A stretch of 64,000 nt of DNA from Acidobacteriota bacterium (GCA_963663035.1 OY760074.1:3258967-3322966), one strand, 5' to 3'; shown: positions 2,712 to 36,943, counted from the stretch's first letter. Notes: generated by a model not told the origin, from the sequence alone. Made by a program: numbers and translations.

Positions 2712-2973
2712 TAGCCCGGATTATGCATAAATTCTCTACTGCAGCGACGCAATCATCCGCCCTGACTGCGTTGCGCGACCCGCAAGCGGGTACCCCTCAG
2801 CTCCTCAACGTACTCAAGAGTACGTTTGCGGCGGTCGACCCGCAAGCGGGTACCCCTCGCGCGCCAGTCGGAGCCGCAGGCTTTAACCTGCGGGCCCGTG
2901 GGCTAAAGCCCACGGCTCTGTTTTCCGGCGCTTCCGTTGCTTCGTGACAAGAACCTATGCATAAACCGGGCTA
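2712..2973 (+). repeat. family-1 MITE-like structured repeat, copy A (full-length modular version)
   Basis: TA-GCCCGGATTATGCATA ... TATGCATAAACCGGGC-TA terminal inverted repeats; internal dyads GACCCGCAAGCGGGT (x2), ACGTACTCAAGAGTACGT, CCGCAGGCTTTAACCTGCGG and CCGTGGGCTAAAGCCCACGG; seven copies in the window. Confidence 0.8.
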
Positions 2974-3420
2974 GGGGGAGAAGGCTTCGAGGAGGAACCT
3001 GCAAGCCTCACCATAAATGCCCGGACTGCCGCTCTCTCTTGGCCCTGCAACGTTCAGAGTTCGGATTCGGTGCTGCCTGATCCAGTCAAGAAGTTTCTGG
3101 GATGGGGAGGTGGACAGGTCGATGACCAGACAGGGCTTGTTGTTTTCCTTGGTAAGCTCTACCGTTAAGGCAGTACCCCCTGAGAGAGAGCCTCTGTGCA
3201 AGACCAGCGTTCCATCCGAGTCTCGAACGTTCCATTCAGTTCGCTGGGCATAGGCTTTCGAGGGTGTCTCTTTGAGTGGATAGATTTCCTGGAGTGGTCC
3301 ATCCTCGGCAAGCCGGCCACTGGGACACCATCCACCGCAAGGGAATCCTAGCTCCAGTGCCACGTCCAGAGCAGCTCTGTCCACTCCTGTCTGCCCTCCT
3401 GAGAACACTCTCTGAATCAT
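2971..3420 (-). CDS. SLOG/LOG-like protein, putative molybdenum-cofactor-carrier family (YpsA-like)
   Basis: N-terminal SGGQTGVDRAALDVALELG...GGWCPSGR motif recalled from the MoCo-carrier/SLOG family. Confidence 0.45.
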   Translation of the reverse strand: MIQRVFSGGQTGVDRAALDVALELGFPCGGWCPSGRLAEDGPLQEIYPLKETPSKAYAQRTEWNVRDSDGTLVLHRGSLSGGTALTVELTKENNKPCLVIDLSTSPSQKLLDWIRQHRIRTLNVAGPRESGSPGIYGEACRFLLEAFSP

Positions 3421-4013
3421 TCTTTGCTGGCAATCGATTGCAATGAAAAGGGTATGACCGGGATTGTTCCACCTTTTAACAGAGCTGAAATTTCCTTCTG
3501 GAAGCCAGCGACGGTCTTCTCTTGAAAGCCTTGGGAAACATGAGCAGAATCGGTGAGATAGAGTTGTCTGTCATAGACAAGTTGTGCTTGAACAGCTTTT
3601 CCTTTAAGGGCCTGTGCAATGAGAAGGCAACTGGCTTGCTCAGCGTATGATCGGAGGATCCTGCTTCCCTGGGGGCTGAGCTCGCCTATGAGGTAAATTC
3701 CCTGTAACAAGCTTGAGACTTCTTCGAAAAGGCTCGAGAGAAGGTTTTGTGTCTCCGACCATACCGACTGGGAAGTCAGCTGTCGGGCAACTTGCATGTA
3801 AAGGGTTCTAGCCCCCTCAGCTACCGTGGAGGCGAGGACGAGATCTTGACCGGCAGATTTCTCCCCAGCTTCCAGCAAACGCTGTTCCGTTTTTCCCATT
3901 CCTGCAACCAGAACAAGGAGTTGCTCTTGCGAGGAGTTCAGCACAGATTCCACCGCTTGAGAAACTCCCGCTATATCTGGCAGAACGGAACTTTCAAATT
4001 TCAGGATCGTCAC
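3417..4013 (-). CDS. truncated aspartokinase-like amino-acid-kinase domain protein (KFGGxS loop changed to KFESSV; no C-lobe or ACT domains)
   Basis: MTILKFESSV...LVLVAGMGKTEQ...GGTIPVIPF aligns to the aspartokinase N-lobe; only 198 aa; 4-bp overlap with the downstream SLOG gene. Confidence 0.5.
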   Translation of the reverse strand: MTILKFESSVLPDIAGVSQAVESVLNSSQEQLLVLVAGMGKTEQRLLEAGEKSAGQDLVLASTVAEGARTLYMQVARQLTSQSVWSETQNLLSSLFEEVSSLLQGIYLIGELSPQGSRILRSYAEQASCLLIAQALKGKAVQAQLVYDRQLYLTDSAHVSQGFQEKTVAGFQKEISALLKGGTIPVIPFSLQSIASKE

Positions 4014-4085
4014 TTTGCCCTTCCCAAAATTCGATCATGTCACAATTTGAAATTTGTTTCGAGTTTCCAGTTTGTGATCCTGGAC

Positions 4086-4853
4086 TTATCGCGGACCCAT
4101 TCGCAAGGCCCCGTCCAGACGAATCGTCTCGCCATTGAGAGTAACGTTTTCTACAATGTGTTGGACCAGTGCAGCAAACTCGTCGGGCCGGCCCAAACGA
4201 GGGGGGAAGGGAACTTGCTCCCCAAGTGAGAGCCGTGCAGGTTCAGGGAGTCCGGCCAAAAGAGGAGTATCAAAAATGCCGGGGGCGATGCTAACGACCC
4301 GGATGCCAGGGCGGGCAAGCTCCCGAGCAGCCGGCAGGGTCAATGCCACGATCCCACCCTTGGAGGCCGCGTAGGCCGCCTGACCGATTTGTCCTTCAAA
4401 AGCAGCGACTGAGGCCGTGTTGACGATGATCCCTCGTTCTCCCTCTTCATTCGGCTGATTTTGAGCCATGGCTGCAGCGGCCAGCCGCAGAGTGTTGAAG
4501 GTGCCGATAAGATTGACTTGAATGACACGGGTGAAGTGCTCCAGGTCGTGTGGTCTTTCCTTACCCAGGATCTTCTCGGCAATGGCTATACCGGCGCAGT
4601 TGACCAAGAGGTGAATGCCTCCGTGCTGCTTGACGGCAAGTTCGACCGCCCCTTTGACCGATGTCTCCTGGGTAACATCGGTCTCGACAAAGAGTGCCCC
4701 CTCACCGAGTTCGTGTTCCAAGGTCTTACCCGCCTCCTGGTTCAAGTCGGCGATGAGTACTTTTGCGCCTAAGGAGTGAAGCATTCGCACAGTAGCCAAG
4801 CCCAATCCCGAGGCTCCCCCTGTAACCATTGCGCTTTTCCCTTTGATGAACAT
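4086..4853 (-). CDS. short-chain dehydrogenase/reductase (3-hydroxyacyl-CoA dehydrogenase type-2-like)
   Basis: Start [20 protein letters not shown] (Rossmann TGxxxGxG); YxxxK region; ORF-track start at 4946 probably too long. Confidence 0.75.
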
Positions 4854-4923
4854 AGCAAGTGTTATAAGGGTGTCAGGGGAGAAATTCAATACCGAAAGGT
4901 AACGCACGAGTTCGGAACCTGAG

Positions 4924-6198
4924 GTGCCTCCCACGCACAAATGCACGAATTACGGTACTATGGGCCTCATGCCTACCATTGATACTCAGCGGCTGAAGCG
5001 CTTGCCGCCCTATCTGCTTGGGGTTCTCAATGACATCAAACTTCGTCTGCGCCAGGAGGGAGCCGATGTCATCGACCTGGGCATGGGCAACCCCGACCAG
5101 CCCACCCCCCAGCACATCGTCAACAAATTGATTGAGGTCGTCCAGGACCGCAAAACACATCGCTATTCCGCCTCCAAGGGTATTCCAGGCTTACTGCGGG
5201 CCATCTGCCGCTTTTACAAGAAGCGCTTTGGCGTGGATCTGGACTGGCAGTCCGAGTGCATCGCCACCATCGGCAGCAAGGAGGGTCTGGCCCACCTGAT
5301 GCTGGCTATACTGGACCCGGGCGACTTGGCGCTGATTCCCAACCCCTCTTATCCGATTCATATCTACAGCGTGGCCATGGCCGGTGGAAACGTTGTGTCC
5401 ATTCCTCTGCGCGAGGAGGAGGACTTCGTTCCCGACCTGGAGTACATTACCAGAGAGATCTGGCCCAGACCCAAAGTTATGACCTTGAATTTCCCTCATA
5501 ATCCGACTACCGCCACCGTCAGCCTGGACTTCTTCGAGGAGATCGTCCGCTTCGCCCGCGATAACCACATTATGGTCATCCACGATATGGCGTATGCCGA
5601 TATCACCTTCGATGACTGTAACGCTCCCAGTTTTTTGCAAGTGCCGGGTGCCAAGGATGTAGGGGTGGAATTTTACACCATGTCGAAATCTTACAACATG
5701 GCCGGATGGCGGCTCGGCTTCTGCGTGGGCAATCGAGACATCGTGGCAGCTTTGGCCAAGATCAAGGGCTATCACGACTATGGTATTTTTACTCCGATTC
5801 AGGTCGCCGGCATCGCCGCGCTGGACGGTCCGCAGGACTGTGTTGTAGAGCAGGCCAAGATCTACCAGAACCGACGGGACGTCCTGTGCGATGGGCTCAA
5901 CCGCATCGGCTGGTCGGTCAAGGCGCCCAAGGCCAGTATGTTTACCTGGGCGCCGATTCCGGAGCCCTATCGAGAAATGGGCTCGATGGAGTTCTCTACC
6001 CTGCTGATGCAGGAGGCCCATGTGGCGGTGCTGCCTGGAGTCGGCTTCGGGGACCTGGGTGAGGGGTATGTGCGCATTGCCATGGTGGAAAATGAGCACC
6101 GGCTTCGCCAGGCCATTCGAAACATTCGCCGCTGCTTGACGAAGCTCGAGCCCAGCGATCCACAACTGGAGCAACAACAAATGAGGGTGAGGAGTTAA
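4924..6198 (+). CDS. class I/II PLP-dependent aminotransferase (AlaT/AspC/DapL-like)
   Basis: [21 protein letters not shown]-lysine context [13 protein letters not shown]; true start probably M at 4960. Confidence 0.75.
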
Positions 6199-6428
6199 AG
6201 TCCCATCAAAAGGGATCCAAAACTGGCCATGGGATGGTTTGCCAAACCGGATTGAAAACTAGTAACATGGGTCGGGTGAGGAGCTGGATCTCGGGCGCAG
6301 AGAGCGGATACCATTCGGGCCAAGAGGATGACCATTCTCTGTAACCCTATACCCAAACACTCGGCCAGGAGAGAATTTGTGTTTGCCTATATCGGAGTTT
6401 ATCCTCGAGCCGAAAGTGGAAAGACTTT

Positions 6429-8204
6429 ATGAGCCCAAAAAGATTTGATCTAGCCATCGCCATTGGCGGTGCTGCCGGACAGGGAATCGCGACCCCCGGT
6501 AATATCCTGGCCCGGTTGTTTGTCCGCCGTGGTCTGCATCTTTACGCCTACAATGCCTATCAATCGATCATCCGAGGCGGGCACATTTTTCTGACTTTGC
6601 GTGTCAGTGACCAGAAGGTTCGCAACCACGGGGATAAACTGGACCTCCTGCTGTGTCTGAATCAGGACACTATGAATCGGCACCTGGTCCTGATGGGAGA
6701 GGGCAGCCGGGTGCTCTTTAACAGCGACGCCATTCAGGCGGGCCAAGCCGCCAAAGGTGCTCATTTGTGCCCCTTACCCGTTGCTGAGTTGACCAGCGGT
6801 GCGCGACAGGTCCAGAACACCGTTGCCCTGGGAACCATCACATCTATGCTGGGGCTGGAGTTTCAAGTCCTCGAGGATGCCTTGACCCTTCAGTTCAAGC
6901 GAAAGGGCCAGGCTGTGGTCGATGGGAACGTTAGCGCAGGTCGTGCCGGCTTTGACCACGCAAAGGCCAACTTCGAGCCTTTTCCGGATCCGCTTCCCAC
7001 TGGTCCCAAACCACTAGGGGTCTGGACCGGAAATGAGGCTTTGGCGATGGGTGGCGCCGCCGCCGGCGTTAAGTTTTACTGTGCCTACCCCATGAGTCCT
7101 GCAACCGGAGTGCTCCATTGGATGGCCAAGAATGCTCGCGAGCTGGGAATTATGGTTCGGCAGGTGGAGGACGAAATCGCAGTGGCCAATATGGCCGTCG
7201 GGGCAGCCCATGCCGGTTGCCGGGCCATGTGTGCCACCTCCGGCGGAGGGTTCGCATTGATGACCGAAGCTATAGGCATGGCGGGAATGATGGAGGTTCC
7301 CGTAGTGTTTATTAACGTTCAGCGAGCCGGTCCCTCCACGGGCGTGCCCACCAAGACCGAACAGGGGGATCTGTGGCAGGTGCTGGGCGCCAGCCAGGGG
7401 GACTTCGAGCGCCTCATCGTGGCCCCGAAAGATGCCCTGGACGCCTTTGATACCATCCCCGAGCTGTTCAATCTGGTGGACAAATATCAGTGCCCTGGCA
7501 TTGTCATCTCCGATCTGCTGATCTCAGAAGGCACCTTCAGCGTTGATCCCGACAAGATTAGCCTGCGTCCAGAGATCGATCGGGGGGATTTGATTACTTC
7601 CTCCTCCCAGGACGACGGCTATATGCGCTACAAGAATACAGAAAGTGGGATCTCTCCGCGCGCCTTGCCAGGCCTGGAGGGTTATATCCACGTCGTGGCC
7701 ACCGACGAGCACGACGAGGACAGTATTTTGATCAGCGACGAGTTCACCAACCCACATAAGCGCCGCAAGATGGTCGAAAAAAGAGCCCGAAAGTTCAAAG
7801 ACATCGGCAAAGCGATGGCAGCGCCACAGTTGGAGGGTCCGGAGGATGCCCAGGTCACGCTCATCGGATGGGGATCCACTTACGGTGTCATCAAAGAGGC
7901 GGTGGAGCAGTTGAGCCACCAGGGGATTACCGCCAATCAGCTTGCCATCAAATGGATCGTTCCCCTTCACGCAGAAGTGGTGAGCGAGATCATCTCTCGC
8001 TCCAAGCGAACGATTATTGTCGAGAACAACTACTCCGGCCAGTTTTTCCGCTATCTGCGGAGTGAAACCGGACTCAGCGTGGACGGACACATCCGCAAGT
8101 ACGATGGTGAGCCCTTTATGCCCCATCACATTGTGGAAGGTGTGCTGGAGCAGCTTTCCGGGACGACCGATCACTCCGTACCGATTCAGGAAATCATGGT
8201 CTAA
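6429..8204 (+). CDS. korA: 2-oxoacid:ferredoxin oxidoreductase alpha subunit (KorA-like)
   Basis: 591 aa; AIAIGGAAGQGIATPG start typical of KorA/PorA fusions. Confidence 0.8.
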   Translation: MSPKRFDLAIAIGGAAGQGIATPGNILARLFVRRGLHLYAYNAYQSIIRGGHIFLTLRVSDQKVRNHGDKLDLLLCLNQDTMNRHLVLMGEGSRVLFNSDAIQAGQAAKGAHLCPLPVAELTSGARQVQNTVALGTITSMLGLEFQVLEDALTLQFKRKGQAVVDGNVSAGRAGFDHAKANFEPFPDPLPTGPKPLGVWTGNEALAMGGAAAGVKFYCAYPMSPATGVLHWMAKNARELGIMVRQVEDEIAVANMAVGAAHAGCRAMCATSGGGFALMTEAIGMAGMMEVPVVFINVQRAGPSTGVPTKTEQGDLWQVLGASQGDFERLIVAPKDALDAFDTIPELFNLVDKYQCPGIVISDLLISEGTFSVDPDKISLRPEIDRGDLITSSSQDDGYMRYKNTESGISPRALPGLEGYIHVVATDEHDEDSILISDEFTNPHKRRKMVEKRARKFKDIGKAMAAPQLEGPEDAQVTLIGWGSTYGVIKEAVEQLSHQGITANQLAIKWIVPLHAEVVSEIISRSKRTIIVENNYSGQFFRYLRSETGLSVDGHIRKYDGEPFMPHHIVEGVLEQLSGTTDHSVPIQEIMV

Positions 8205-8216
8205 TGAGGTAAGAAT

Positions 8217-9134
8217 ATGACAGTTGGAGATAGCACCCGGGATGTAACCGCGGACAAGCCCATCACTTCACTGCAGGCGAAGGATTTTAAGGGACCAGTG
8301 GAACCTGACTGGTGTCCGGGCTGTGGCGACTTTGGAGTCCTGAAGGGCCTTCAGAAAGCCTGTGCGGAGCTGGGGCTCCTGCCCCATCAGATCCTGACCG
8401 TCAGCGGGATCGGCTGTTCCTCCAATCTTCCCGGGTACGTCAACGCCTATGGGATGCACACTCTTCATGGCCGGCCCTTGGCCGTGGCCACTGGTGCCCA
8501 AATGGCGAATCACGAGCTCACCGTTATTGCAACGGGTGGAGACGGCGATGGATACGGCATTGGTGGGAACCACTTTGTGCACACGGCGCGCCGCAACGTA
8601 GACCTGACCTATATCGTCATGAACAACCAGATTTATGGTCTCACCACCGGACAGATTTCTCCCACCAGCACCCAGGACATGAAAACCAAGAGTACGCCCT
8701 TTGGCAGCGTGGAGCTTCCCATCAATCCCATCACGGCGGCCATCATGAACGGAGCGACTTTTGTGGCTCGTGGCTACAGCGGTCAGGGCAAGCATATGGT
8801 GGAGTTGATGAAGAAGGCGATCCAGCATAAGGGGTTTGCTCTTGTTGACATCTTCAGCCCTTGTGTTACGTTCAACCATGACAACGACTACCAATTTTTC
8901 AAACCACGCATTAAGAAGCTCGAAGACGAAGGCCACGACACCAGCGATTGGAAGACGGCCTGCGAGAAAGCCATGGAGTGGGGCGACACGATCTATATCG
9001 GACTGTTCCTGCAAAAGGACCAACCGACTCTCAGCCAACTGGAGCCTGTCCTGGATGAAGGCGGTCCTCTAGCCTATCGTCCTCTGGGTCTCAGCCAGGA
9101 GCAGAGTCAACGGATCCTCAAAAGAATGATGTGA
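8217..9134 (+). CDS. korB: 2-oxoacid:ferredoxin oxidoreductase beta subunit (TPP-binding, KorB-like)
   Basis: DWCPGCGDFG and GIGCSS motifs, TPP-binding GDG; immediately downstream of korA. Confidence 0.8.
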   Translation: MTVGDSTRDVTADKPITSLQAKDFKGPVEPDWCPGCGDFGVLKGLQKACAELGLLPHQILTVSGIGCSSNLPGYVNAYGMHTLHGRPLAVATGAQMANHELTVIATGGDGDGYGIGGNHFVHTARRNVDLTYIVMNNQIYGLTTGQISPTSTQDMKTKSTPFGSVELPINPITAAIMNGATFVARGYSGQGKHMVELMKKAIQHKGFALVDIFSPCVTFNHDNDYQFFKPRIKKLEDEGHDTSDWKTACEKAMEWGDTIYIGLFLQKDQPTLSQLEPVLDEGGPLAYRPLGLSQEQSQRILKRMM

Positions 9135-9138
9135 AGGA

Positions 9139-9215
9139 AAGTTCCAGGCTCCAGGCTCCAGGCTCCAGGTTCCAAGTTTCAGGTTCCGGAACATCTTCTA
9201 CCTCCTGACTCCTGA
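9139..9215. repeat. tandem heptamer microsatellites (TCCAGGC)x~6 then (CTCCTGA)x3
   Basis: tccaggctccaggctccaggctccaggttccaagtttcaggttccgg ... ctcctgactcctgactcct in a convergent intergenic region. Confidence 0.8.
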
Positions 9216-9224
9216 CTCCTTCTC

Positions 9225-10472
9225 CTATAGCATTCCTTTGAAGCGCTTCGGATCTACCCTGTAATCCGGGAAAATGGCGTCTGCATCTGAAGATCCAAGG
9301 TGCCGGACCAGCACTTCTGCAAACACATCCCGAAAATCTGTGGTGAGAGCCAGATCCCGACCCTGGTAAAGTTGTTCAGGTGCAAGACCTGGCCACTGCC
9401 CGTAGACCTTTCCACCCTTGATATCTCCACCCAGGAGAAACATCACGTTGGCGTGGCCATGATCGGTACCGGCGTTCCCGTTCTCGCGAGCCGTTCGTCC
9501 AAATTCCGACATGGTGAGAACCAGCACGTCTTCCATGCGATCCCCCAGATCCCGATAGAGGGCCGCCAGACCTTGTCCGAACTCTCTCAGCCGGTTGCTC
9601 AGCTGACCGTTGACTCCCCCCTCATTGATATGGTGATCCCACCCACCGATATCCAGGAACGCTACCTCTAACCCGATGTTGGCCTTGATCAATTGGGCGA
9701 TCTGCCCGAGATTTCGGCCGAAGCGACCTTGCGGATACTCCACTCCCGCCTCAGGGCGATACTGGCCGGGGTTGGCTTTCTTGAGAAAATCAATCGCTTG
9801 GAACATTTCCTGAGCTGTGCCCGATAACAGAGAGTCTGTCTCCTGGTCGTAAAGGGTCTCGTAGGCGGTACGGGCCTGTTGTTGGAGCGCTCCCGCTCTC
9901 AGGTCAAAAGAATCGATGTTCCCCAAGGCGATAGCCGGGGTCTCACCTTTGAGGGAGCGAGGCAGGCTCGTTCCCATGGCAACCCCTCGAAAGGAGGTGG
10001 CTTCTGGATCCGGATTGTGCTCCAGATAACGACTCAACCATCCGTCGGAAATACTCTTGGTCCCGGGAGCGGCCGACTCCATAAAGTCTTGAGCATCGAA
10101 GTGAGAACGCGTGGAATCGGGAGAGCCTGCTGCATGTACGATCGCCATTTGCCCCTCTTGGTAAAGACGGTGAAGAGGCTTCAGCGAGGGATGGAGTCCG
10201 AAAAAGCCGTTCAGGTCGACCGCAGACTCCTGCCCTGAGGTGGGAGCTGGGATGGCAATGGTGGGACGACTCGCGTAGTAGGCCTGCTCCCCAAAGGGCA
10301 CGACGGTATTGAGACCGTCAGCTCCGCCTCGTTGAAAGACGGCGATGAGAACCTTTCTTCGCCGAGTGTCCGCGGGGACCGCCTGCACGGTGCGAAGCAC
10401 GAAACTGGGCACTGTTCCCATTCCTACAAGGGCAATCCCGCCGTTTTTGAGAAGGATGCGTCGGGTAATCAT
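9225..10472 (-). CDS. DUF1501 family protein (Tat-signal, sulfatase-like fold)
   Basis: Tat-like N-terminus MITRRILLKNGG; GGWDHH and HGHANVMFLLGGDIKGG motifs; paired with DUF1800 gene. Confidence 0.7.
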   Translation of the reverse strand: MITRRILLKNGGIALVGMGTVPSFVLRTVQAVPADTRRRKVLIAVFQRGGADGLNTVVPFGEQAYYASRPTIAIPAPTSGQESAVDLNGFFGLHPSLKPLHRLYQEGQMAIVHAAGSPDSTRSHFDAQDFMESAAPGTKSISDGWLSRYLEHNPDPEATSFRGVAMGTSLPRSLKGETPAIALGNIDSFDLRAGALQQQARTAYETLYDQETDSLLSGTAQEMFQAIDFLKKANPGQYRPEAGVEYPQGRFGRNLGQIAQLIKANIGLEVAFLDIGGWDHHINEGGVNGQLSNRLREFGQGLAALYRDLGDRMEDVLVLTMSEFGRTARENGNAGTDHGHANVMFLLGGDIKGGKVYGQWPGLAPEQLYQGRDLALTTDFRDVFAEVLVRHLGSSDADAIFPDYRVDPKRFKGML

Positions 10473-10483
10473 CAGGATGTCTC

Positions 10484-12220
10484 CTATCTCTTTTGGAATT
10501 GTGGTGAGCCCAGCATAAAAGCAGCAGCAATCACCTGCTTGGAAAAGCGAGTCTGACGCAGACCATCTCGCCGATCCTGCTCTTCTCCGGCCTGCCCGAG
10601 AAGGGTGCGGGTCTGCTCGAGTTGTTGGGTGTTGGGTTCAGGAAGCCTGAGCTGCTGGAACAGCGGCCCGGCTGATGCAAGATCTACCCGAATCTGAGGA
10701 ATCCTGTCAGCGGCTAGAACGAGGGCGAAGTTCAATCGCTGTAGCAGCGAGTTGGTATTAATCCAGGCAGAAGCCACATCCGGGTAACCAGTGGGTTCCT
10801 GGCACAGGTAGAGCGCCTCCCCCATTTCGGCCAAGACCTGCATCAGCCGACGGGCCGGGCGCATCTCAGCTTCTGTAGCGCGTAGAGAACTCACCACCAG
10901 TTCAAGAGGCTTCTTGACTTTGGCCTGATAGGCGTCGCGGGAGAAGAAGTGAGGATGAGTAAAGATTGTCCATAATACCTCTCGGATGTCTCCGCCCGTC
11001 CGCTCGAAGGTGAGACTTGCCGCATCCACCAGGTCCTCGGGAGGATCGTCGGCGACGAAGCGCCGAACCAGTTTTGTGGAAATAAAGCGAGCGGTGGAGG
11101 GATGGCGAGCCAGCATCTTGATCACCTGCTCACCCTCTTGAACTCCACCGGATCGAATAGTCTGCCCCAGCACCACTTTGTCGCCCTCTTCGTGCAGAAG
11201 AGGTTGGAACTGAAAGGGGCCTCCCTGTCGGGGAGCCGTAATGGTCCAGCCCGTTAAAGCCCTGGCCACCTGGATGACATCCTCCTGGCTGTATCCTCCC
11301 TCGACACCGAGAGTGTGAAGCTCCATTAGCTCTCGGGCATAGTTCTCATTGAGGCCCTTGGCACGCTGTAAATTCCTCAGGATTGCCCGGTCTGCCGGCT
11401 GGCGGGTACTCTGCTGGCGCCGCCTGCGAGAGCGCGGTGCCAGACGACTTCTTAAAGTGGCGACGCGTTCTTCCATGACCTGGGCAGGTGCAGAACTGAT
11501 CCAGTTGTCCAGGTAAAAAAGCATGGCCGGGCTCTTGGCGGTTGCCATCAGGAGATCTTCGAATTTTCCCAGGACCAGGGGACGCACGACGCTTTGCTCG
11601 AAATCGGTCGTGTACACTCGATCCTGACCCTTGGACAGGAAGATATTGAAGTGGTTCATCCAGAAGTCAGCCATCACTTCCTGAAGCTGGCGCTCACTGT
11701 AAAGAGCCCGGAGCAGCTTGGCCTGGGTGAGCTCGAACCGAATCTGCTGCATACCCTCTCGCATCTGTCGGCGAGCCGCTTGCATTTCCTCGGTGACCTC
11801 AGGGACTGAATCGGATCCAGACATCTGCTCTGGGTCGTTCTGTCTTTCCGCCTGGAGGGTCTGCATTTGGCGTCTCAGCTCATTGGTACCGGAAGAGAGT
11901 TCGGCCAGCTCTGGCGGGGTCATGGTCAAGGTCTTGAAACCGGCCAGTTTTTCCTCCACGACGGTCTCGGGAATGAGCTGGGGACGAAGCTGCTGCTCGA
12001 TATAGGCTTGAATCCCCATGGCCGCGACTCGTTCGATATCTCCCGGTCGAGGTCCAAAGCTCAAGCGATTCAGTACGTGGATGATTTTCTCCTCTTCTGT
12101 CAGTGTCATCTCCTCAGGGCCGGCCCAGGAAAAGACAGACGCTCCAGGAGCAATCAATAAAGAGCAAAGCACCAAAGCCAAAATGGACTGTCCTGTTCTT
12201 GCTGAAGCCAAACTCTCCAT
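10484..12220 (-). CDS. DUF1800 family protein (partner of DUF1501)
   Basis: Signal peptide MESLASARTGQSILALVLCSLLIAPGA with GGAG RBS; ORF-track N-terminal extension (to 12346) runs into repeat B and is rejected. Confidence 0.65.
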   Translation of the reverse strand: MESLASARTGQSILALVLCSLLIAPGASVFSWAGPEEMTLTEEEKIIHVLNRLSFGPRPGDIERVAAMGIQAYIEQQLRPQLIPETVVEEKLAGFKTLTMTPPELAELSSGTNELRRQMQTLQAERQNDPEQMSGSDSVPEVTEEMQAARRQMREGMQQIRFELTQAKLLRALYSERQLQEVMADFWMNHFNIFLSKGQDRVYTTDFEQSVVRPLVLGKFEDLLMATAKSPAMLFYLDNWISSAPAQVMEERVATLRSRLAPRSRRRRQQSTRQPADRAILRNLQRAKGLNENYARELMELHTLGVEGGYSQEDVIQVARALTGWTITAPRQGGPFQFQPLLHEEGDKVVLGQTIRSGGVQEGEQVIKMLARHPSTARFISTKLVRRFVADDPPEDLVDAASLTFERTGGDIREVLWTIFTHPHFFSRDAYQAKVKKPLELVVSSLRATEAEMRPARRLMQVLAEMGEALYLCQEPTGYPDVASAWINTNSLLQRLNFALVLAADRIPQIRVDLASAGPLFQQLRLPEPNTQQLEQTRTLLGQAGEEQDRRDGLRQTRFSKQVIAAAFMLGSPQFQKR

Positions 12221-12234
12221 GGTGATCTCCTGAC

Positions 12235-12415
12235 TAGCCCGCATTATGCATAGGTTTACGTAGCAAAGTGGCGAAAGCGCCGCGATGACAAGGCGTGCTA
12301 CGAAGCGCCCCGCAGGCGTACTCTTGCAGTACGCCGAGGAGCGCAAGGAAGCACAACGCCGTCAGCGCGGATGATTGCGACACTATTGCAGAAAATTTAT
12401 GCATAATGTGGGCTA
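12235..12415 (-). repeat. family-1 MITE-like repeat, copy B (short variant, reverse orientation)
   Basis: TA-GCCCGCATTATGCATA ... TATGCATAATGTGGGC-TA; the two ends co-vary (GCAT/ATGT). Confidence 0.75.
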
Positions 12416-12536
12416 AAAAGCACTTCCTTCATCCTTGCTGCTTGTTAATACGGACCGCAACCAGAAATGTTTCTGACCGGGCCGGGTGTTCCTATCCTCC
12501 CTTCAGGTTATACTCAGTACAAAGGCTACCGTATTG

Positions 12537-13652
12537 ATGAAGCGAGGCACTGAGGCTATTTTCCTTGACGTTGGTGGGACTCTACTGGAGTTGGGAGACC
12601 CGGCCCAGGCCTACCGGGCTATCTTGGAAAGACATGGCTATCACGCCACCAAAGACCAGGTTCGCTCCTGGGTCAGACAGGCACAAGAGGAGACCGGCCC
12701 CGTCTCCAGTGGGTGCGCGTCGGACTTGTGTGGGTCTGACTTCACAATCTCCGCCAGCAAAGAGGAAGCACGGCGTCAGGACCTGATTGCCGCTATTCTC
12801 CGCAAGGCAGGCGTCAAGAAACACTTCGATAGTTGCCGGAAGGAAATCTGGGATTCATGGCTGAAAGAACCCGTTTTCCGACTCTTCCCGGAGACTATCT
12901 CCACTTTGAAGCAACTCAAAGAATCCGGATTTCTCCTGGGGGCGGTCTCCAATTGGGAACCGAGACTGCTCGAGTTGTGTGAGAACCTGGGAATTGGCCG
13001 ATATTTCGACTTCATGTTGATTTCCGAGACTCAAGGATACGCCAAACCGGGCATTCGACTCTTTGAGCTGGCATTGGAACGAGCCGCAACCCGGCCGGAG
13101 AAAGTCATACACGTGGGGAATGATGCGGTAGAAGACATCCAGCCTGCGGAGTCGCTGGGTATTCGTGCAGTCCTCCTCCAGCGAAATGGCTCCAAGGGAA
13201 TGGAACATTCGCCGCGGATTCCCTCGCTGAAAGAGGTGCTGCCTCTTGCCCGGGCCTCGGCCTGGATTCGTGGGAGGGTGGTGAGTGGTAAGGGTGAGGC
13301 AGCTGGCTTCACCGGGCTACCATGGGTCCGGGAACAGGTGGCAAGGGGCTTCAACTTTAAGCCATTTCCCGGGACTCTCAATCTGCGGCTGGAAAGGGCG
13401 CAGGACCTGGCAATGTGGAAGGAGCTCCGCAGCCAGCCCGGTCAGTTTCTGGAACCGGAGAAGGGTTATTGTGCCGCGAAGTGTTTTCCAGTCAGCGTGG
13501 AAGGACAGGTTTCGGGTGCCATTGTGCTTCCGGCAGTTCCCTCCTATCCGAGCAACGTGGTTGAGTTATTGGCCCCTGTTAACCTCCGCGAGGCGCTGGG
13601 ACTGGGCGACGGTGGGGCGGTCACGATTGCCCTTGTCCCGCCTGCGACGTGA
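12537..13652 (+). CDS. HAD-family hydrolase fused to archaeal-type CTP-dependent riboflavin kinase-like domain
   Basis: N-terminal FLDVGGTLL (HAD motif I), GNDAVEDI (motif IV); C-terminal RGRVVSGKGEAAGF...GFNFKPFPGTLNLRL resembles the MJ0056-type RibK domain. Confidence 0.6.
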   Translation: MKRGTEAIFLDVGGTLLELGDPAQAYRAILERHGYHATKDQVRSWVRQAQEETGPVSSGCASDLCGSDFTISASKEEARRQDLIAAILRKAGVKKHFDSCRKEIWDSWLKEPVFRLFPETISTLKQLKESGFLLGAVSNWEPRLLELCENLGIGRYFDFMLISETQGYAKPGIRLFELALERAATRPEKVIHVGNDAVEDIQPAESLGIRAVLLQRNGSKGMEHSPRIPSLKEVLPLARASAWIRGRVVSGKGEAAGFTGLPWVREQVARGFNFKPFPGTLNLRLERAQDLAMWKELRSQPGQFLEPEKGYCAAKCFPVSVEGQVSGAIVLPAVPSYPSNVVELLAPVNLREALGLGDGGAVTIALVPPAT

Positions 13653-13753
13653 GAGGGGGCCGCGAGGTAAACAGGAATTGAAAACGCACTTTTCTCGAAA
13701 AGTTTTCGTTCAAGAGCAGGGCGCGAGCAACATCGGTTGCCTTCTCACTATTA

Positions 13754-14091: not shown

Positions 14092-14105
14092 TACCGACCG
14101 GGATG

Positions 14106-15188: not shown

Positions 15189-15194
15189 TGGGTC

Positions 15195-15407
15195 TAGCCG
15201 GGATTATGAATAAGTTTCCTACTGCAGTGCCGCAATCATCCACGCTGACTGCGTTATGCGACCCGCAAAGCGGGTACCCCTTGGGCTCCTCGGCGTACTG
15301 CATGAGTACGCCTGCGGGGCCCGACCCGCAAGCGGGTGCCCTCGCATGCCTTGTCATCGCGGCGCCAGCGGCACTTCGTCACGAAAACCTATGCATGATC
15401 CCGGCTA
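15195..15407 (+). repeat. family-1 MITE-like repeat, copy C
   Basis: TA-GCCGGGATTATGAATA ... TATGCATGATCCCGGC-TA (CCGGG/CCCGG compensatory swap versus copy A). Confidence 0.75.
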
Positions 15408-28145: not shown

Positions 28146-29573
28146 TCACCGGAGGTATTTATCCATCCACTCTCCGTAAACCTCTTCATGTTCCTTGGCG
28201 ATCCAGCTCCCCGGATCCGCCACGTAATCTCTTTGATAGTCCCCTTCGACATTGATCCCGGGTATGGCCGGGATCCATGCCTCCTTGAGCACCTCATCGG
28301 GATCTCCGTACTTGGCGGCTAATTGCCTGATTTCCGGATCATCCAGGACGGTTAAATGGCCCTTGTCGATGAGCTTGATGGTCTCACCATCCTCGGTTTC
28401 CATCTCAAAGGTGTTGAAGTAGGTGTGAACATGAAAATGGCCGTCAGGCATGTTGTTGTCTATTGCCCACTGCCCTCCTCCTTGAACGCCGATGCCCCAG
28501 TGAATGATCCCGGTTCTTGCTCTTTCCCAGCTTAAGATTCGGCTGGGCTGAATCATGACATTGGCGGGTCGTGCAGACTTTGGATTGGTTCCGATAGCCA
28601 CTTCATACAGCCAACCCATTCCCGGGCCGGGCATGCCCGGCCACTGGACATCCTTATATTTGTCCAGGACAGACTTCCAGTTTTCCCCATAGCTGCCGCC
28701 GGCTTCGATTCGGGTGATGTTGTTCCCGCTAATGTAAACTTTGATTTGAGGGAAAAATCCGGTGTGGTTGGAGGATCCGGCAATCACCCCTTCGGCGTCC
28801 AGAATACTCTTGGTGTCAAAAGGAGGATAAGCCGCGATATGACCTCTGCTCTGAATCCGCTCTGGATGCTCACGGTCTTCTCTTCTCACCGTCCAGGTAA
28901 TATCGGTCCCCTCCGGATCGGTGACTCTGACCTTTCTTGCCTTCAGCAGTGTGTCCCAAGTCTTCTGGTCTATAGCTTCAACGATCTCAGCAGGGTACTC
29001 GGCCGTACCCGAAATGAACTCGTCCAGCGTTTGCCATGGGATTTTTTCCCATCGAAATCCTGAATGTTCCGGGTTGCCTCCACCGGTTCCGTGGATCACC
29101 ACATGATATTCAGCAACTCCCCTGGCCAGGTCAGCAATGAAAGTCTTGGAGCGCATGGCGTTGTCTCTCAGGAAAAGGAAATATTCCAACTCCTTGATCG
29201 CTTCCCCGGGCTTCATCTCTGGGAAAAAGCTGTGATAGTCCAAAAAGAGCACATCTACTTTCCCCCCGGCTTCTCGGATCGCCATCTCCAGGGCTGCCAC
29301 AACGTTACGATCAAAGGCACTGTCCGGGGCCAGCAGAACTCTCTGGCCAGGTTGGATGCCCCAACCCACAGCAAACCCCGTCCCCTCCCTGGAGGGTCGG
29401 TTCACGATGGTTCGGGCAATCTCCAGCAAATCCTCCGGGCCGTCAACATCCCTCAGATTGGGATAGGTCGGCGCCGGATAATCAAAGGTCCGTTGTGCCA
29501 TCAGTGGAGTACTCAGAGCCACAATGGCCCACACCAGGAGCAAGCCACTTCCGGTCAAGTGTTTTGTTTTCAT
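28146..29573 (-). CDS. secreted hypothetical protein (possibly aminopeptidase-like)
   Basis: Signal peptide MKTKHLTGSGLLLVWAIVALSTPLMAQ; no family recognised with confidence. Confidence 0.4.
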   Translation of the reverse strand: MKTKHLTGSGLLLVWAIVALSTPLMAQRTFDYPAPTYPNLRDVDGPEDLLEIARTIVNRPSREGTGFAVGWGIQPGQRVLLAPDSAFDRNVVAALEMAIREAGGKVDVLFLDYHSFFPEMKPGEAIKELEYFLFLRDNAMRSKTFIADLARGVAEYHVVIHGTGGGNPEHSGFRWEKIPWQTLDEFISGTAEYPAEIVEAIDQKTWDTLLKARKVRVTDPEGTDITWTVRREDREHPERIQSRGHIAAYPPFDTKSILDAEGVIAGSSNHTGFFPQIKVYISGNNITRIEAGGSYGENWKSVLDKYKDVQWPGMPGPGMGWLYEVAIGTNPKSARPANVMIQPSRILSWERARTGIIHWGIGVQGGGQWAIDNNMPDGHFHVHTYFNTFEMETEDGETIKLIDKGHLTVLDDPEIRQLAAKYGDPDEVLKEAWIPAIPGINVEGDYQRDYVADPGSWIAKEHEEVYGEWMDKYLR

Positions 29574-29661: not shown

Positions 29662-29838
29662 TAGCCCGCACTATGCATAACTTTTCTGCTACAGTGTCGC
29701 AATCATTCGCGCTGACGGCGTTGTGCGACCCGCAAGCGGGTACCCCTCACACGCCTTGTCATCGCGGCGCTTGCGCCACGTCGCTACGAAAACCTAAGCA
29801 TAGTGCGGGCTAGCCGGGACCTTTGCATAATCCCGGCT
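29662..29838 (+). repeat. family-1 MITE-like repeat, copy F (shortest) plus adjacent 27-bp TIR-only mini-element (29812-29838)
   Basis: TA-GCCCGCACTATGCATA ... AAGCATAGTGCGGGC-TA-GCCGGGACCTTTGCATAATCCCGGC-TA. Confidence 0.7.
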
Positions 29839-29880
29839 AGTGCCTTCTGTGGTGACTGGGTGGGTAGCTGTTGAGAGGGG

Positions 29881-34001: not shown

Positions 34002-34048
34002 CCCCCTCAGCCTTCCAATCTCAGACCCATCCAACTTCGGCCATACCA

Positions 34049-36647
34049 GTGGGAACCCGTATGTCGGAGGACATCTCTAAAATAAAAGAGAAGAGGAGTT
34101 TTACCCTACCAATCCGGAAGAGGCGTGCAGCTGTGAGATCCGAAGGCTATCAGGAAGTAGTGAGAAGGCCCTGGGAGGTTCTTGACCAAGAGATCTTCCC
34201 TTACCTCAATGTTGAGAGATTGTTTGCAGATGTTCGAGGGTTGAAACGCTACGGTCGCTTCTGGCATGGTTCCTGTCCCATCCACGGCGACCTGCAAGGT
34301 GCCTTCTCGATTGATCCGGAAAGACTGGAGTGGAGCTGTGCTCTGGGGTGCGGGGGAGGTGGTCCGGTCCAGTACCTGCAGAAGCTGCGCGGGCTGTCCT
34401 GGATGGACGCTGCGCGAGAACTGGCCAGTCTGGCCGGAGTAGAGCCATCAATTTTCGATCCTTGGCAAGAACACTGGACAGAAGAAGACTTTCTCCTGCA
34501 CGCGAGGTTGGAAAGCCGGTCCAGCCTGCTGGGATTCTTTATGACCTATACCCGATCTTTTTATCGGTCTCTGGCCGGTCAGACAGTCCGCAGTCATCTC
34601 ATCACCCGACAGGGTTTCCCCGAGAACAAGCTCGAGGAGCTTGATCTCGGGCTGTACACCGCCCCGGAAGACGTGTGGCACTGCCTGAAGAAGACAGGAC
34701 GTGATTTGGAAGAGGTCCGTTCGTGGGGCTTGTTTGAGGCGCCATGGAGCGGTCGCATAGTGGGTTGCTGGAAGGACCTTCAGGGCAGAAGAATTAATAT
34801 CTGGGGTTGGCAGCCCAAGGAGACTTCCACCGGACAGGCCAGTATGGAGGGACGCATCCTTTTTGAACAGGGCGATGCTTTAGGTGGGAAAAGCGTCCCC
34901 TTCAATCTGGATGTTGCTGCTGGTTTGGAAAAGCGTGATCTGCTCCTGTTGGAGAGCCCTATCAAGGCCCTCTTTACCCAGTCCCTGGGTCTTGAAGACC
35001 CCTTTCCCGTGGCGGCAGGAGGAGACCTGAACAGCGTGCAGATTGAGGCTATGCAGAAGCACCTTCGCTTGGGCGGCGCGCTGACCGTCTGTTGGGACTA
35101 TGATCCTGAGACTGACGGAACCAAAAAGGACAGAGCCTTTACCACGCTGCAACGATTGAAGAAAGCAAACTTTCCTATCTACGTCGTGAATCCGGCATGC
35201 CTGGCAGATCAGAGCAGGCCAAAGCAAAAGGTTACGGTCAATGACTTTATCCTGAGACACGGAGGAGGTGAGAAAGGGCTTCAAGCTTTTCAAGAGCTTC
35301 TTGAGAAACCAGAGAAGTATGAAGCGGAAATGATTGTCGACGGAACAGCTTTAGGAAACCAGAGCGGGATCTGGCCAGGGGTCTTGGAGATCTTTCACAG
35401 TTTCTCCTCCAGAAACTCTAGAGCCTCCGCCAAAGCAGATGAAGACGAGATCATCTCCGAACGCCTTCAAGCTCTGGAGCCCATGTTCCAAGCAGCTGAA
35501 GAGATCGGACGCAGTATAGCCAAAGGTTTCTTAGGTGGTCTACCCAGGCGTCTTGCCAATGAGTTGGCGGGCGAGGCCTCTAATGGACTGCAGCTCGCCT
35601 CACATTCCGCCGGAGAATTGGCCAGTCTTCCCGTTCAGATTTCGAGTCCCCCCACTTTCTCCGTTGATCGCCTGGGAGAGGAAACCCGTGCGGCTCCACT
35701 AGTCGAACTTTCGGGTTGGCAGGCACTGGACAATCTGGAGGTTCGCTTCAACCCGGGAGAGCTGGCCGTTTTAGGGGGGCGCACAGGGCACGGAAAAACC
35801 TCGATGCTCCTGGGTCTACTCCTGGAGTGGCTCGAGAAGGCCGCTGTACAGGGGACAGACAAGCTTTTTCTTTTCTATTCCGTGGAGGAACCGGAGGTTC
35901 GCATCTATCACCGCCTGTTGAGTCTTTTAACGGCCAGAAATGGAACGGGCTGGACCATCCATCAAGTCGAAGACTATCTGAAACAGAAAAATGGTCATCC
36001 GGTTGAGTATTCGCCCCTTGATCCGGAAACCTTGGAGGCTGCCGAAGGACGTTTCCACTCTTGGGAAGAATGTCTTCAGATTCTCTACCAGCCCACCTGG
36101 ACCATAGCAGAACTGGAGACCTATGCTCGGAATTTATCCGAGAGCCGAAAAGTGGGGGCGATTCTTGTGGATCACCTACAGCGCATTCCACCACCAAAGG
36201 GAACGCATGGCCGCCGCGATGTGGAGATTTCCACCGTCGCTCATCGCCTTAAGACCTTGGCGGTCGACCTGTCCTGTCCCATAGTCACAACTGCTCAAAT
36301 TGGGCGGCAGGCTCTTCAGCGAGCACATAAAATCCCTGCCAAACAAGCCCCTTGGGGATGTGAATGTGCTGGGAGCCATCAAAATGCGTCGTCCCCAGCT
36401 CCAACACCTGAGAGAGGGTGGAATTGAGCAAGAGGCGGACCTGGTCCTTGGACTGCTGAACTACGCGGCCGATTACCAGGCTGAGATGGAGGAACCAGGG
36501 TCGATCGCCGCCACCACACCTTTCGAGGTGGGCACCCTCAAGAACCGGTATGGGCCTGTGGGCTGTTGGGCTTCCCTTCGCTTCCAAGGGCGATTCGGAT
36601 TTTTGCAAGATCCGGGAATCCTAGCCCACCTGATGCTGGCCCTTTGA
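34049..36647 (+). CDS. T7 gp4-like primase-helicase (DnaG zinc finger plus Toprim plus DnaB-like helicase), +1/-1 frameshift near 36300-36340
   Basis: CHC2 finger CPIHGD...CALGCGGGG; Toprim E...WDYDPETDG; Walker A GGRTGHGKTS; VDHLQRI, TTAQIGRQ; the DnaB C-terminal motifs (RRPQLQHLREGGIEQEADLV, NRYGPVG) continue only in the other frame. Confidence 0.65.
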
Positions 36648-36696
36648 ATCACCAAGACGTGTTCCGGGCTAGCCCACCTGATGCTGGCCCTTTCCA

Positions 36697-36943
36697 AGCC
36701 CGCATTTCTCACACCAGGTCGTCGCGAAGCGGTGAAAGGACCGGAAAACAGAGCCGTGGGCTTTAGCCCACGGGCCCGCAGGTTAAAGCCTGCGGGCCCG
36801 ACTGGCGCGCGACAGAGTCCCCCCGCAGACGTACTCTTGAGTACGTCGAGGAGGCCGAGGGGTACCCGCTTGCGGGTCGCGCAACACAGTCAGGTCGGTT
36901 CATTGCGCCGATGCAGTAGATCGGGTGTGAGAAACGCGGGCTA
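36697..36943 (-). repeat. family-1 MITE-like repeat, copy G (variant termini AGCCCGCATTTCTCACACC / GGTGTGAGAAACGCGGGCT)
   Basis: Internal modules (CCGTGGGCTTTAGCCCACGG, CCGCAGGTTAAAGCCTGCGG, ACGTACTCTTGAGTACGT, ACCCGCTTGCGGGT) match copies A and E; termini differ but remain mutually inverted. Confidence 0.7.

Follow-up and report, generated by a model that had tools for sequence, protein, structure and literature searches.

The seven hairpin-rich repeats spread over the window (the whole 64-kb stretch of DNA that was analysed) are a MITE family of marine Acidobacteriota, abundant in uncultured members of the phylum, and most likely depend for their movement on DDE transposases of the IS1380 family supplied in trans. 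The autonomous partner, as judged from its sequence, is a 1650-bp IS1380-family insertion sequence (IS) with ends identical to those of the repeats. It is probable that we are dealing with a MITE carrying IS1380 end sequences, and that its two ends co-vary mainly through their fit to the same transposase. The family is previously undescribed; the kind of element is well known, and the notable twist is a single body with at least four end classes. In the literature searched no MITE of the IS1380 family is described, and the end sequence of the repeat appears in no paper.

The terminal inverted repeat (TIR) shared by the seven copies and by one further ends-only copy is TAGCCCGGATTATGCATAA (Table 1). 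Allowing up to three mismatches, the pattern GCCCGGATTATGCATA has 14 matches in the window against a mean of 0.35 in shuffles, 14 being reached in none of 100 shuffles, and the dense family of seven copies described in the original prediction could be located in full, together with the TIR-only mini-copy beside the right end of copy F and the short dyads of the body, of which each copy has a different subset. The copies have the size of MITEs (151-262 bp), are non-coding and lack a transposase gene, and their TIRs extend over 18-19 nt. Two of them reach into genes: the TAG stop codon of a cpYpsA gene (2971-3420, minus strand) is the terminal CTA of copy A (2971-2973), and the last 14 codons of an AcrB-family ORF (36900-40079, minus strand), then its TGA stop, are encoded by the first 41 nt of copy G.

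Table 1. Repeat copies and nested hairpin doublets in the window.
Feature	Position	Strand	Description
Copy A	2712-2973	+	262 bp, flanking TA counted at both ends; class 1a; hp1 twice, hp2, nested hp3/hp4 doublet
hp3/hp4 doublet in copy A	2874-2915	+	REP-like; hp3 2874-2893, hp4 2896-2915
Copy B	12235-12415	-	181 bp; class 1a variant (GCCCRCATT); hp2 variant, without hp1
Copy C	15195-15407	+	213 bp; class 1b ends (GCCGGG...CCCGGC); two hp1-type hairpins on either side of an hp2-type hairpin
Copy D	18597-18806	+	210 bp; class 1a; left TA changed to AA
Copy E	22004-22206	-	203 bp; class 1a; hp1 and hp3/hp4 doublet; positions 3-18 match perfectly
hp4/hp3 doublet in copy E	22062-22103	-	nested in repeat
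Copy F	29662-29812	+	151 bp; minimal form, two arms and one hp1; both ends GCCCGCACTATGC
Ends-only mini-copy	29811-29839	.	29 bp; class 1b, degraded; adjoins copy F, TA common to both
Copy G	36696-36943	-	248 bp; class 2 ends (GCCCGCRTTTCTCACACC); body same as other copies
hp4/hp3 doublet in copy G	36754-36795	-	nested in repeat

Each copy has at either end a terminal block of 22-23 bp, which presumably covers the transposase binding site, and the chassis that these blocks enclose is conserved and imperfectly palindromic, folds end to end and has a variable set of small hairpins at its centre. The DNA fold of the entire element is one long stem (copy A, z = -8.2; copy F, z = -5.5). The nested hp3/hp4 units are like REP/BIME elements in that they are GC-rich hairpins of about 28 nt, which stand alone or in inverted doublets and are not confined to the repeats: they were found 14 times outside them in related genomes and have a dispersal of their own; the likeness is restricted to these modules and does not extend to the whole element. 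Hairpin modules are lost in place or gained as nested insertions. Internal deletion removes central modules at the site; at its most extreme it runs from the self-complementary TATGCATA core of one end to that of the other, and a 28-bp palindrome is left. The body also takes insertions of other small repeats, namely REP-like hairpins and members of a second family of palindromic repeats.

From public MAGs and metagenomes, whose assemblies can misjoin at repeats, 181 full copies were gathered (1.5 Mb of fetched loci), and the exact 19-mer end was found in 106 genome stretches, almost all of them Acidobacteriota MAGs; a segment of the window is 79% identical over 2.5 kb to the MAG B68T1B8. Related genomes contain both filled and empty sites as well as orthologous sites in different deletion states, and this polymorphism bears out the earlier description of a mobile, MITE-like repeat. 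At one orthologous site a full copy is present in two loci (L154 and L211) and a 28-bp mini in a third (L177), with a private variant common to all three; the 28-bp mini-copies arise from full copies by deletion. Whole central modules differ between orthologous full copies as well.

Evidence for the partner comes from three elements bounded by the same 20-bp ends (L007 1234-2883, L036 132-1780 and L099 4405-6053; 1649-1650 bp each), with one intact 464-aa transposase ORF apiece, which provide these repeats with an autonomous element of the same TIRs. The ORF matches Pfam PF13701 (E = 1.7e-143, 478.5 bits, cut-off 34.7) and the NCBIfam IS1380 model NF033539 (E = 1.3e-113, 379.8 bits, cut-off 180). 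Transposase genes of the IS1380 family lie between such ends in class 1 elements (L007, L036, L099, L034, L067 and L101) and in relatives (L009, P0014, P0032 and P0107); the ISs recovered for classes 2, 3 and 4 are close relatives, none having exactly these ends. A tblastn search of the 64-kb window with the partner transposases found no transposase gene. Bacterial MITEs with a cognate IS include Nezha of IS630, IS1- and IS4-derived MITEs and the Tn3-derived TIMEs (PMC3184786, PMC4133298). Like these, the present repeats are short, non-coding and multi-copy, with TIRs identical to those of an autonomous IS, an apparent short target duplication, an intergenic position and a whole element foldable into a long hairpin; unlike these, their partner is of the IS1380 family, at least four end classes sit on one body, and that body is unrelated to the IS interior, the sequence in common being the terminal 18-21 bp only. 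The IS1380 family (for example IS1380 and ISEcp1) comprises prokaryotic relatives of piggyBac and is its outgroup in PMC10813416. In its PF13701/NF033539 transposase, length of 1.65 kb, single ORF and terminal repeats of about 20 bp the partner IS is like this family, whereas the window elements differ from its autonomous members in being non-autonomous.

The ends of the repeats were assigned to classes 1a (GCCCGGATTATGCATA), 1b (GCCGGG...), 2 (GCCCGCATTTCTCACA), 3 (GCCTGCATTTCTCATC) and 4 (GCCCACATCTATTCC), and the differences that define the classes are mirrored between the two ends, as GCCGGG/CCCGGC in copy C, GCACT/AGTGC in copy F and TTTCTCACACC/GGTGTGAGAAA in copy G. Among 112 copies sampled without bias towards ends, concordant pairs were 52 of class 1a/1a, 25 of 1b/1b, 25 of 2/2 and one of 3/3, with one further copy (L216) having class 4 ends on both sides that could not be typed automatically; the discordant ones were three clear class-1/class-2 chimeras, a degraded copy typed as mixed (L166) and four mixed 1a/1b copies. 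When class 1a is compared with classes 2+3, identity is 0.80 in the chassis and 0.42 in the terminal blocks; the chassis value within class 1a is 0.83, and the terminal-block values within classes are 0.82-0.87. The different terminal blocks of 22-23 bp sit at both ends of one chassis and join it at identical positions. Ends of the IS1380 lineages begin with TAGCCCG or a close variant and then diverge by lineage, left and right being matched within each element, as in the IS1380-type relatives L009 (TAGCCGCCATTTCTCACCGAT / TAGCCCGCATAGATCACCGAT), P0014 (TAGCCCGCATATTTCACCAA / TAGCCCGCCTTTCTCACCAA), P0032 (both ends TAGCCCGCAAATTTCACC) and P0107 (both ends TAGCCCGGATATCTCATAAG). The end of copy G is identical to the right end of P0014 at 16 of 17 positions; the repeat end classes, that of copy G included, resemble the lineage-specific matched end pairs of IS1380-type elements.

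The matching is less strict than the exact complementarity within each copy that had been claimed. At positions 3-18 only E and G match, the other five window copies having one or two uncorrected mismatches there, and once the terminal TA and position 19 (part of the conserved AA/CC internal loop) are counted every window copy has 2-3 differences per 19 nt; of the 16-nt end cores in 99 scorable end-unbiased copies, 7 are perfect, 39 mismatch at one position and 36 at two. What stands of that claim is that the ends differ between copies with the class differences mirrored, and that ends and inner arms co-vary.

The main cause of the match between the two ends is probably that one transposase has to accept both. 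Ends fall into discrete specificity classes, and these resemble the pairs of matched ends found in the various IS1380-type elements. Amplification of a copy presumably requires both of its ends to fit one transposase, which would give amplified subfamilies their concordant ends. Most of the co-variation is indeed that of ends differing by subfamily, an outcome named in the original prediction as speaking against its own proposal of selection or a mechanism acting on end-to-end pairing; the part of the proposal that survives is an excess of compensated changes inside one class. Within class 1a the ends have 18 Watson-Crick doubles against 4.2 expected under independence and the inner arms 31 against 6.9, an expectation that is not tree-aware, so that small subfamilies could account for some of the excess. 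Arm position 36/13 has the pairs A-T (24), G-C (17) and C-G (17), and a mirrored double change separates the orthologous minis of L047 and L215. An excess of roughly four-fold, found in the inner arms as well as inside a single end class, allows for a process that involves hairpins, and may come from hairpin-templated (quasi-palindrome template-switch) mutation or from selection on master copies for fold-back, two options which the data do not separate. Template switching that homogenises the arms of inverted repeats is an established process (PMC8604942, PMC7202029), a mutational mechanism rather than an element family, by which the complementarity of imperfect inverted-repeat arms rises without selection. 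Mirrored double changes without strand bias, as are seen here, would follow from it, and we infer its action from that likeness.

A more far-reaching reading, which we put forward tentatively and hold to be rather unlikely, is that the chassis is a selected 'universal adaptor', on which terminal blocks of 22-23 bp would be exchanged at both ends with identical junctions, exploiting at least four IS1380-lineage transposases, the arms and the 28-bp remnant ends being kept complementary by hairpin-templated mutation. It is suggested because between classes the chassis is 80% identical, no less alike than inside a class, and the terminal blocks 42%, and because one orthologous remnant pair has a mirrored double change. 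If true, covariation of an RNA-like kind would here originate in the DNA, no selection on RNA being involved.

Less probable again, and to our mind distinctly doubtful, is that end-to-end pairing is itself selected, through a single-stranded hairpin or fold-back intermediate in transposition, replication or function, such that changes in the arms must be matched. The long single stem is in keeping with this, as are the compensated doubles, which inside a single end class are 4-4.5 times as many as independence predicts, the covariation at arm positions 21-43, beyond the terminal repeats (three kinds of Watson-Crick pair at position 36/13), the conservation of the mismatched AA/CC internal loop beside the ends while neighbouring pairs covary, and the mirrored double change between the orthologous minis L047 (class 1a/1a) and L215 (class 1b/1b), although the same pattern is expected from non-selective template switching. 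However, uncompensated cells outnumber compensated ones (79 vs 18 at the ends and 140 vs 31 in the arms), perfect end cores are as few as given above, and end-class chimeras persist; given such chimeras, and given that most changes are uncompensated, the pairing of the two ends is not strictly kept. Further, the 1.65-kb autonomous ISs have the same end matching but lack a fold-back body, and the partner enzyme is a DDE transposase, a kind of enzyme known to act on double-stranded ends.

That the repeats are structured-RNA genes or cis-elements (an sRNA, a 3'-UTR stabiliser or a terminator cassette), their covariation being due to selection on RNA structure as proposed for bcr1, is very improbable. 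A structured RNA had been offered as a possible cause, and strand asymmetry gives it no support: G·T and A·C mismatches number 30 vs 68 at the ends and 118 vs 118 in the arms, and since there is no G·T excess over A·C this is evidence against a strand-specific RNA. Copies lie in both orientations (four plus and three minus in the window), are polymorphic for insertion, lose central modules rapidly in place and have no sigma-70-like promoter inside them. RNAalifold gives 66 pairs, 19 with double changes, which would favour an RNA, but the copies are related and explanations at the DNA level fit equally well. The hp4 module followed by CTCTGTTTTC gave the top two terminator-like matches (copies A and E) in a scan of 2600-22400, copy G, positioned outside that range, has hp4 and the CTCTGTTTTC tail also, and in all three the arrangement is oriented as the upstream gene. 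Against this, the repeats match no Rfam family at gathering score, the best being Acido-Lenti-1 at 18.5 bits vs 37 required and covering a nested hairpin only; in the Rfam scan of the window a tRNA was the sole match at that score, and permissive scans gave sub-threshold generic hairpin matches only. For compensatory changes in a mobile repeat there is a precedent in bcr1 of the Bacillus cereus group (Klevan 2007, Kristoffersen 2011, summarised in PMC3184786), of about 155 bp and with 5-bp direct repeats, reported to be transcribed and with no cognate transposase named in that review. As in bcr1, compensatory base changes here keep a cruciform-like fold whose structural stability differs among copies. 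Unlike bcr1, to which they have no sequence similarity, the present repeats have an identified transposase partner and no strand bias.

The reading of the repeats as IS630/Tc1-mariner-type (Stowaway-like) MITEs, with the IS630/Tc1-like partner of the original prediction, could draw on the TA at both ends of most copies and on a preferred CTAG or YTAR context that resembles CTAG, the target of IS630, but is rejected with near certainty, every transposase gene bounded by these ends (class 1 and relatives) being of the IS1380 family, as the search by shared TIRs brought out, and no IS630-type gene adjoining any such end in the 1.5 Mb of loci. The TA target duplication proposed alongside it is plausible all the same: the flanks read Y-TA-[GCCC...GGGC]-TA-R, often CTAG, with outside bases varying as Y on the left and R on the right, and two diverged related empty sites retain a single TA, a clean empty site in a close relative having been found nowhere, so that insertion appears to occur at the TA within Y-TA-R with apparent duplication of the TA. 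Full-length IS copies whose flanks were read have CTAG on both sides, compatible with duplication of TA or of the 4-bp CTAG; the TTAG...CTAG flanks of many repeat copies fit TA only. Target duplications of 4-5 bp are described for the IS1380 family (ISfinder), unlike which the flanks here fit TA within YTAR, or CTAG in the case of the IS copies. With its four-base palindromic context, CTAG/YTAR, the insertion site is reminiscent of TTAA, at which piggyBac inserts.

Seven copies of the repeat (A to G), 151-262 bp long and oriented four against three, lie within 2712-36943 of the window, and the end motif GCCCGGATTATGCATA, at up to 3 mismatches, has 14 matches in the window against a mean of 0.35 in shuffled sequence, so the repeat family of the original prediction is real. 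The four small dyads noticed then are also found in the window copies, in subsets that vary, and the ends-only mini-copy exists in a degraded state. Neighbouring genes are ordinary chromosomal ones (PP2C phosphatase, cpYpsA, DUF1800, riboflavin kinase, RpiB, AcrB and a DnaB/primase-like protein). An exact search with the 19-mer end across one genome per prokaryotic species gave 106 stretches, nearly all from uncultured Acidobacteriota MAGs, a biased scan in that every hit must have one consensus end; the MAG B68T1B8 is 79% identical to part of the window over 2.5 kb. Because this first sample was forced to one consensus end, a second scan of metagenome contigs used the pattern TCTACTGCANYRNCGNAATSATCC, internal to the left arm, and gave at least 120 stretches. 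Collection with nhmmer profiles of the two arms yielded at least 181 full distinct copies (7 from the window, 69 from the biased genome scan and at least 105 from the unbiased metagenome scan), and class and flank counts use 112 unbiased copies from among the matches listed. The family is very abundant in marine and deep-sea Acidobacteriota genomes, and a name and mechanism for it should aid assembly, binning and annotation.

Coordinates of the repeats, partner elements and other features (L-numbers are fetched MAG or metagenome loci)
Feature	Sequence	Position	Remark
Repeat copies A, B, C, D, E, F, G (starts)	window	2712, 12235, 15195, 18597, 22004, 29662, 36696	
Ends-only mini-copy	window	29811-29839	
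Second palindromic family	window	2159-2446	just upstream of copy A
Second palindromic family	window	18122-18517	just upstream of copy D; ~110-bp extra central insert
cpYpsA gene	window	2971-3420 (-)	TAG stop 2971-2973
AcrB-family ORF	window	36900-40079 (-)	36900-36943 within copy G
25-bp direct repeat	window	36621-36645, 36669-36693	48 bp apart
Similar 42-nt segments	window	29515-29556, 41467-41508, 61967-62008	62-83% identical
rve-type (IS3-like) ORF	window	48818-49858	
tRNA-Leu(CAA)	window	63138-63226 (-)	intact
Partial 3' copies of tRNA-Leu(CAA)	window	48215-48290, 51157-51232, 55996-56071, 60602-60677	upstream of the intact gene
Larger repeats embedding partial copies	window	51147-51355, 55986-56194, 60592-60800	
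Partner IS	L007	1234-2883	one 464-aa ORF
Partner IS	L036	132-1780	one 464-aa ORF
Partner IS	L099	4405-6053	one 464-aa ORF
Palindrome arms around the L009 IS	L009	5180-5257, 7004-7081	78 nt, 77% complementary
Stand-alone CAGAGCCGYRGGCTTTAGCCYRCGGGCC hairpins, single or doublet	L121	4744-4810	
	L146	1990-2032	
	L198	4713-4779	
	L017	5595-5663	
	L043	3962	
	L061	706, 784	
	L185	8838	
	L193	1934	
	L052	27	

Across the unbiased copies discrete end classes sit on one and the same body, and a single conserved, imperfectly palindromic chassis bears at least four of them, apparently swapped as blocks at both ends. The junction between block and body is constant across classes (left block 23 nt, right block 22 nt); chassis identity between class 1a and classes 2+3 is 0.80 against 0.83 within class, whereas for the terminal blocks it is 0.42 against 0.82-0.87. 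These identity values point to block exchange and not to gradual divergence, and the chassis with its exchanged blocks offers a natural system for transposase-host switching by non-autonomous elements. The ends had been said to be exactly complementary within each copy, which is an overstatement: even over positions 3-18 it holds for E and G only, the other five copies carrying 1-2 uncorrected mismatches there; the class-defining differences are indeed mirrored at both ends in C (GCCGGG/CCCGGC), F (GCACT/AGTGC) and G (TTTCTCACACC/GGTGTGAGAAA).

End classes and their left/right pairing in the 112 unbiased copies
Pairing	End sequence	Copies	Remark
1a/1a	GCCCGGATTATGCATA	52	
1b/1b	GCCGGGATTATGCATA	25	
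2/2	GCCCGCATTTCTCACA	25	
3/3	GCCTGCATTTCTCATC	1	
4/4	GCCCACATCTATTCC	1	single copy (L216), left end unaligned by the profile
1a/1b		4	mixed
1/2		3	clear chimeras L167_8612, L134_248, L170_1191
mixed		1	degraded copy L166

Elements of 1649-1650 bp with the same 20-bp ends as the repeats, taken as the autonomous partner, occur in three MAG loci, and their ORF, matching Pfam PF13701 at E = 1.7e-143 and NCBIfam NF033539 at 379.8 bits (cut-off 180), is on this basis assigned as an IS1380-family DDE transposase. The exact 19-mer also ends elements in L034 and L101, whose transposases share 44-65% identity with the L007 enzyme. A more distant IS1380-type IS, in L009, has a transposase sharing 37% identity with the L007 enzyme and class-2-like ends (TAGCCGCCATTTCTCACCGAT / TAGCCCGCATAGATCACCGAT), and a protein search with it uncovered a very large family, three members of which were located on contigs: P0014 (left TAGCCCGCATATTTCACCAA, right TAGCCCGCCTTTCTCACCAA), P0032 (TAGCCCGCAAATTTCACC at both ends) and P0107 (TAGCCCGGATATCTCATAAG at both ends). 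Within this clade both ends start TAGCCCG (a close variant at the L009 left end) and go on into lineage-specific sequence, which is mirrored between the left and right ends of 1.7-kb elements lacking a fold-back body. The end of copy G is identical to the P0014 right end at 16 of 17 positions. Among 227 loci, no IS was found whose ends are precisely those of class 2, 3 or 4 (the candidate L171 proved to be a 70-bp deleted copy), and the L009-clade look-ups gave ends related to classes 2-4 with none identical, so that the link of these classes to IS lineages would be one of close resemblance, not identity. The L009 IS sits exactly central in a palindrome, apparently after insertion into a further hairpin-forming repeat.

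The original prediction listed ends that simply vary by subfamily as a refuting outcome, and this is what L009, P0014, P0032 and P0107 show. The co-variation is mainly a transposase-specificity (subfamily) effect, and confidence in the main explanation as a whole is high; the finding is real and largely explained. A MITE of the IS630/Tc1 type, as had been suggested, is excluded: where these ends enclose a transposase gene, it is one of the IS1380 family. Likewise, a body derived from an internally deleted IS is ruled out, since repeat and IS have the terminal 18-21 bp in common and nothing else in any of the nine ISs compared. Duplication length aside, the family shows the defining features tested of a bacterial MITE with a cognate IS, and is a new family of a known kind. 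Literature searches found no description of an IS1380-family MITE, nor of the end sequence, and as far as they show, apparently no MITE family had been linked to IS1380-type transposases before.

Both a set of 79 copies and the 112 unbiased ones have flanks of the form Y-TA-[GCCC...GGGC]-TA-R; in the latter the base preceding TAG is T in 54, C in 47, A in 9 and G in 2, and TAG/CTA hardly varies. Duplication of a 4-bp CTAG is rejected for the repeats, as it would need C before TAG and T is about as frequent there; their flanks agree with a TA duplication in a YTAR context. Full-length IS copies with flanks read have CTAG on both sides, compatible with either duplication. Only three related sites lacking the element were found: L074 and L100, 73-80% identical to filled sites, retain a single TA, and L068, whose site is filled in L017, retains a 15-nt remnant. 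Adjacent elements often have one TA in common, as do the right end of copy F and the neighbouring mini-copy. IS1380 transposases are prokaryotic relatives of piggyBac and serve as its outgroup (PMC10813416), and the YTAR/CTAG context recalls the piggyBac TTAA target, perhaps as a resemblance only.

The whole element forms one long imperfect hairpin (DNA fold z -8.2 for copy A and -5.5 for copy F), and RNAalifold on the seven window copies gives 66 pairs, 19 with double changes, some of them outside the terminal repeats. Arm position 36/13 in the first 77-copy set is A-T in 24, G-C in 17 and C-G in 17, and the arm signal is lost when the partner is shifted by 1-3 columns. Within class 1a, to which the within-class test was limited (50 unbiased copies), Watson-Crick doubles number 18 at the ends and 31 in the inner arms against 4.2 and 6.9 expected if the sides were independent, an expectation that ignores the tree, so that small subfamilies may account for part of the excess; uncompensated cells number 79 and 140. 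The excess of compensated doubles is real, about 4-fold, and most change is uncompensated, perfect 16-nt end cores being present in 7 of 99 copies. Mismatches of the G·T kind are no commoner than A·C ones (30 and 68 respectively at the ends, 118 each in the arms), and so a strand-specific RNA is not indicated. Rfam at the gathering threshold found tRNA only in the whole window, a permissive run on copies A and E gave sub-threshold generic hairpin matches only (Acido-Lenti-1 at 18.5 bits with 37 required), and a sigma-70 promoter scan found no site within the copies.

The orthologous 28-bp remnants L047 (1a/1a) and L215 (1b/1b), with a coding flank 95% identical, differ by a mirrored C-to-G / G-to-C change, an indication that a copy can be compensated in place. 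An established mutational mechanism, template switching at quasi-palindromes, homogenises inverted-repeat arms (PMC7202029, PMC8604942) and would yield exactly such strand-neutral mirrored changes. Selection on master copies for fold-back is the alternative, and the data fit either. The modest strand-neutral excess may reflect hairpin-templated mutation. Among mobile repeats of bacteria, bcr1 of the Bacillus cereus group is a precedent for compensatory change (PMC3184786). Some caution is due in covariation-based RNA discovery, given that mirrored arm changes can be produced by transposase specificity classes and by palindrome mutational processes.

Between samples, orthologous copies may carry or lack entire central modules (L198 142 bp against L162 217 bp; L054 213 against L071 146; L176 217 against L175 147; L141 185 against L202 122), so central modules are lost, and occasionally gained, in place. 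The inner part of each terminal repeat, TTATGCATAA, reads the same on both strands, so the two ends have a 10-bp direct repeat in common, and a deletion between these would leave exactly TAGCCCGGATTATGCATAATCCGGGCTA. At one site the full copies L154 (200 bp) and L211 (164 bp) stand against a 28-bp palindrome, L177, all with a private AAGCC variant, and 32 such minis (ends-only remnants) occur in 1.5 Mb of loci. Two hairpin modules of the body, hp3/hp4 (unit CAGAGCCGYRGGCTTTAGCCYRCGGGCC), have 14 occurrences outside the repeats and make up a REP-like family of their own, nested in copies A, E and G; hp4 of copies A and E gives the top two terminator-like matches in a scan of 2600-22400, and the weak Acido-Lenti-1 match, far below threshold, falls on hp4 of copy A. 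Copies of 487-489 bp hold a nested second palindromic repeat. A second palindromic family, with ends GCGGGCATYCAGGAAGGYCAAG ... CTTGRCCTTCCTGRATGCCCGC, also lies in the window, and an element related to it is nested in the 489-bp copy L199_5493.

For annotation it is relevant that copies donate stop codons and C-terminal tails to genes: the TAG stop of cpYpsA is the terminal CTA of copy A, and copy G encodes the final 14 codons of the AcrB-family ORF together with its TGA stop. An exact 25-bp direct repeat, CTAGCCCACCTGATGCTGGCCCTTT, adjoins copy G, and on the minus strand it would provide an in-frame TAG, probably the stop of the AcrB-family gene prior to the insertion of copy G.

Unrelated internal sequence is also bounded by the exact 19-nt end TAGCCCGGATTATGCATAA in MAGs labelled as other phyla (Lewinellaceae L003 and L066, Verrucomicrobia L031 and L040, Leptospiraceae L033 and L090, Alistipes L050, Latescibacterota L060). 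Either a wide IS clade whose end is unusually conserved or mis-binning of contigs may account for this. Recurrent flanks, GGAGCCTGTCCG to the right of copies in L095, L008 and L085 and GGGACAGGACAC to the left of copies in L085, L002 and L100, probably place those copies inside yet another repeat. Elsewhere in the window four partial 3' copies of tRNA-Leu(CAA) and an rve-type integrase/transposase ORF have the appearance of several islands integrated at the tRNA, and three similar 42-nt segments picked up by the repeat finder are possibly paralogous gene segments.
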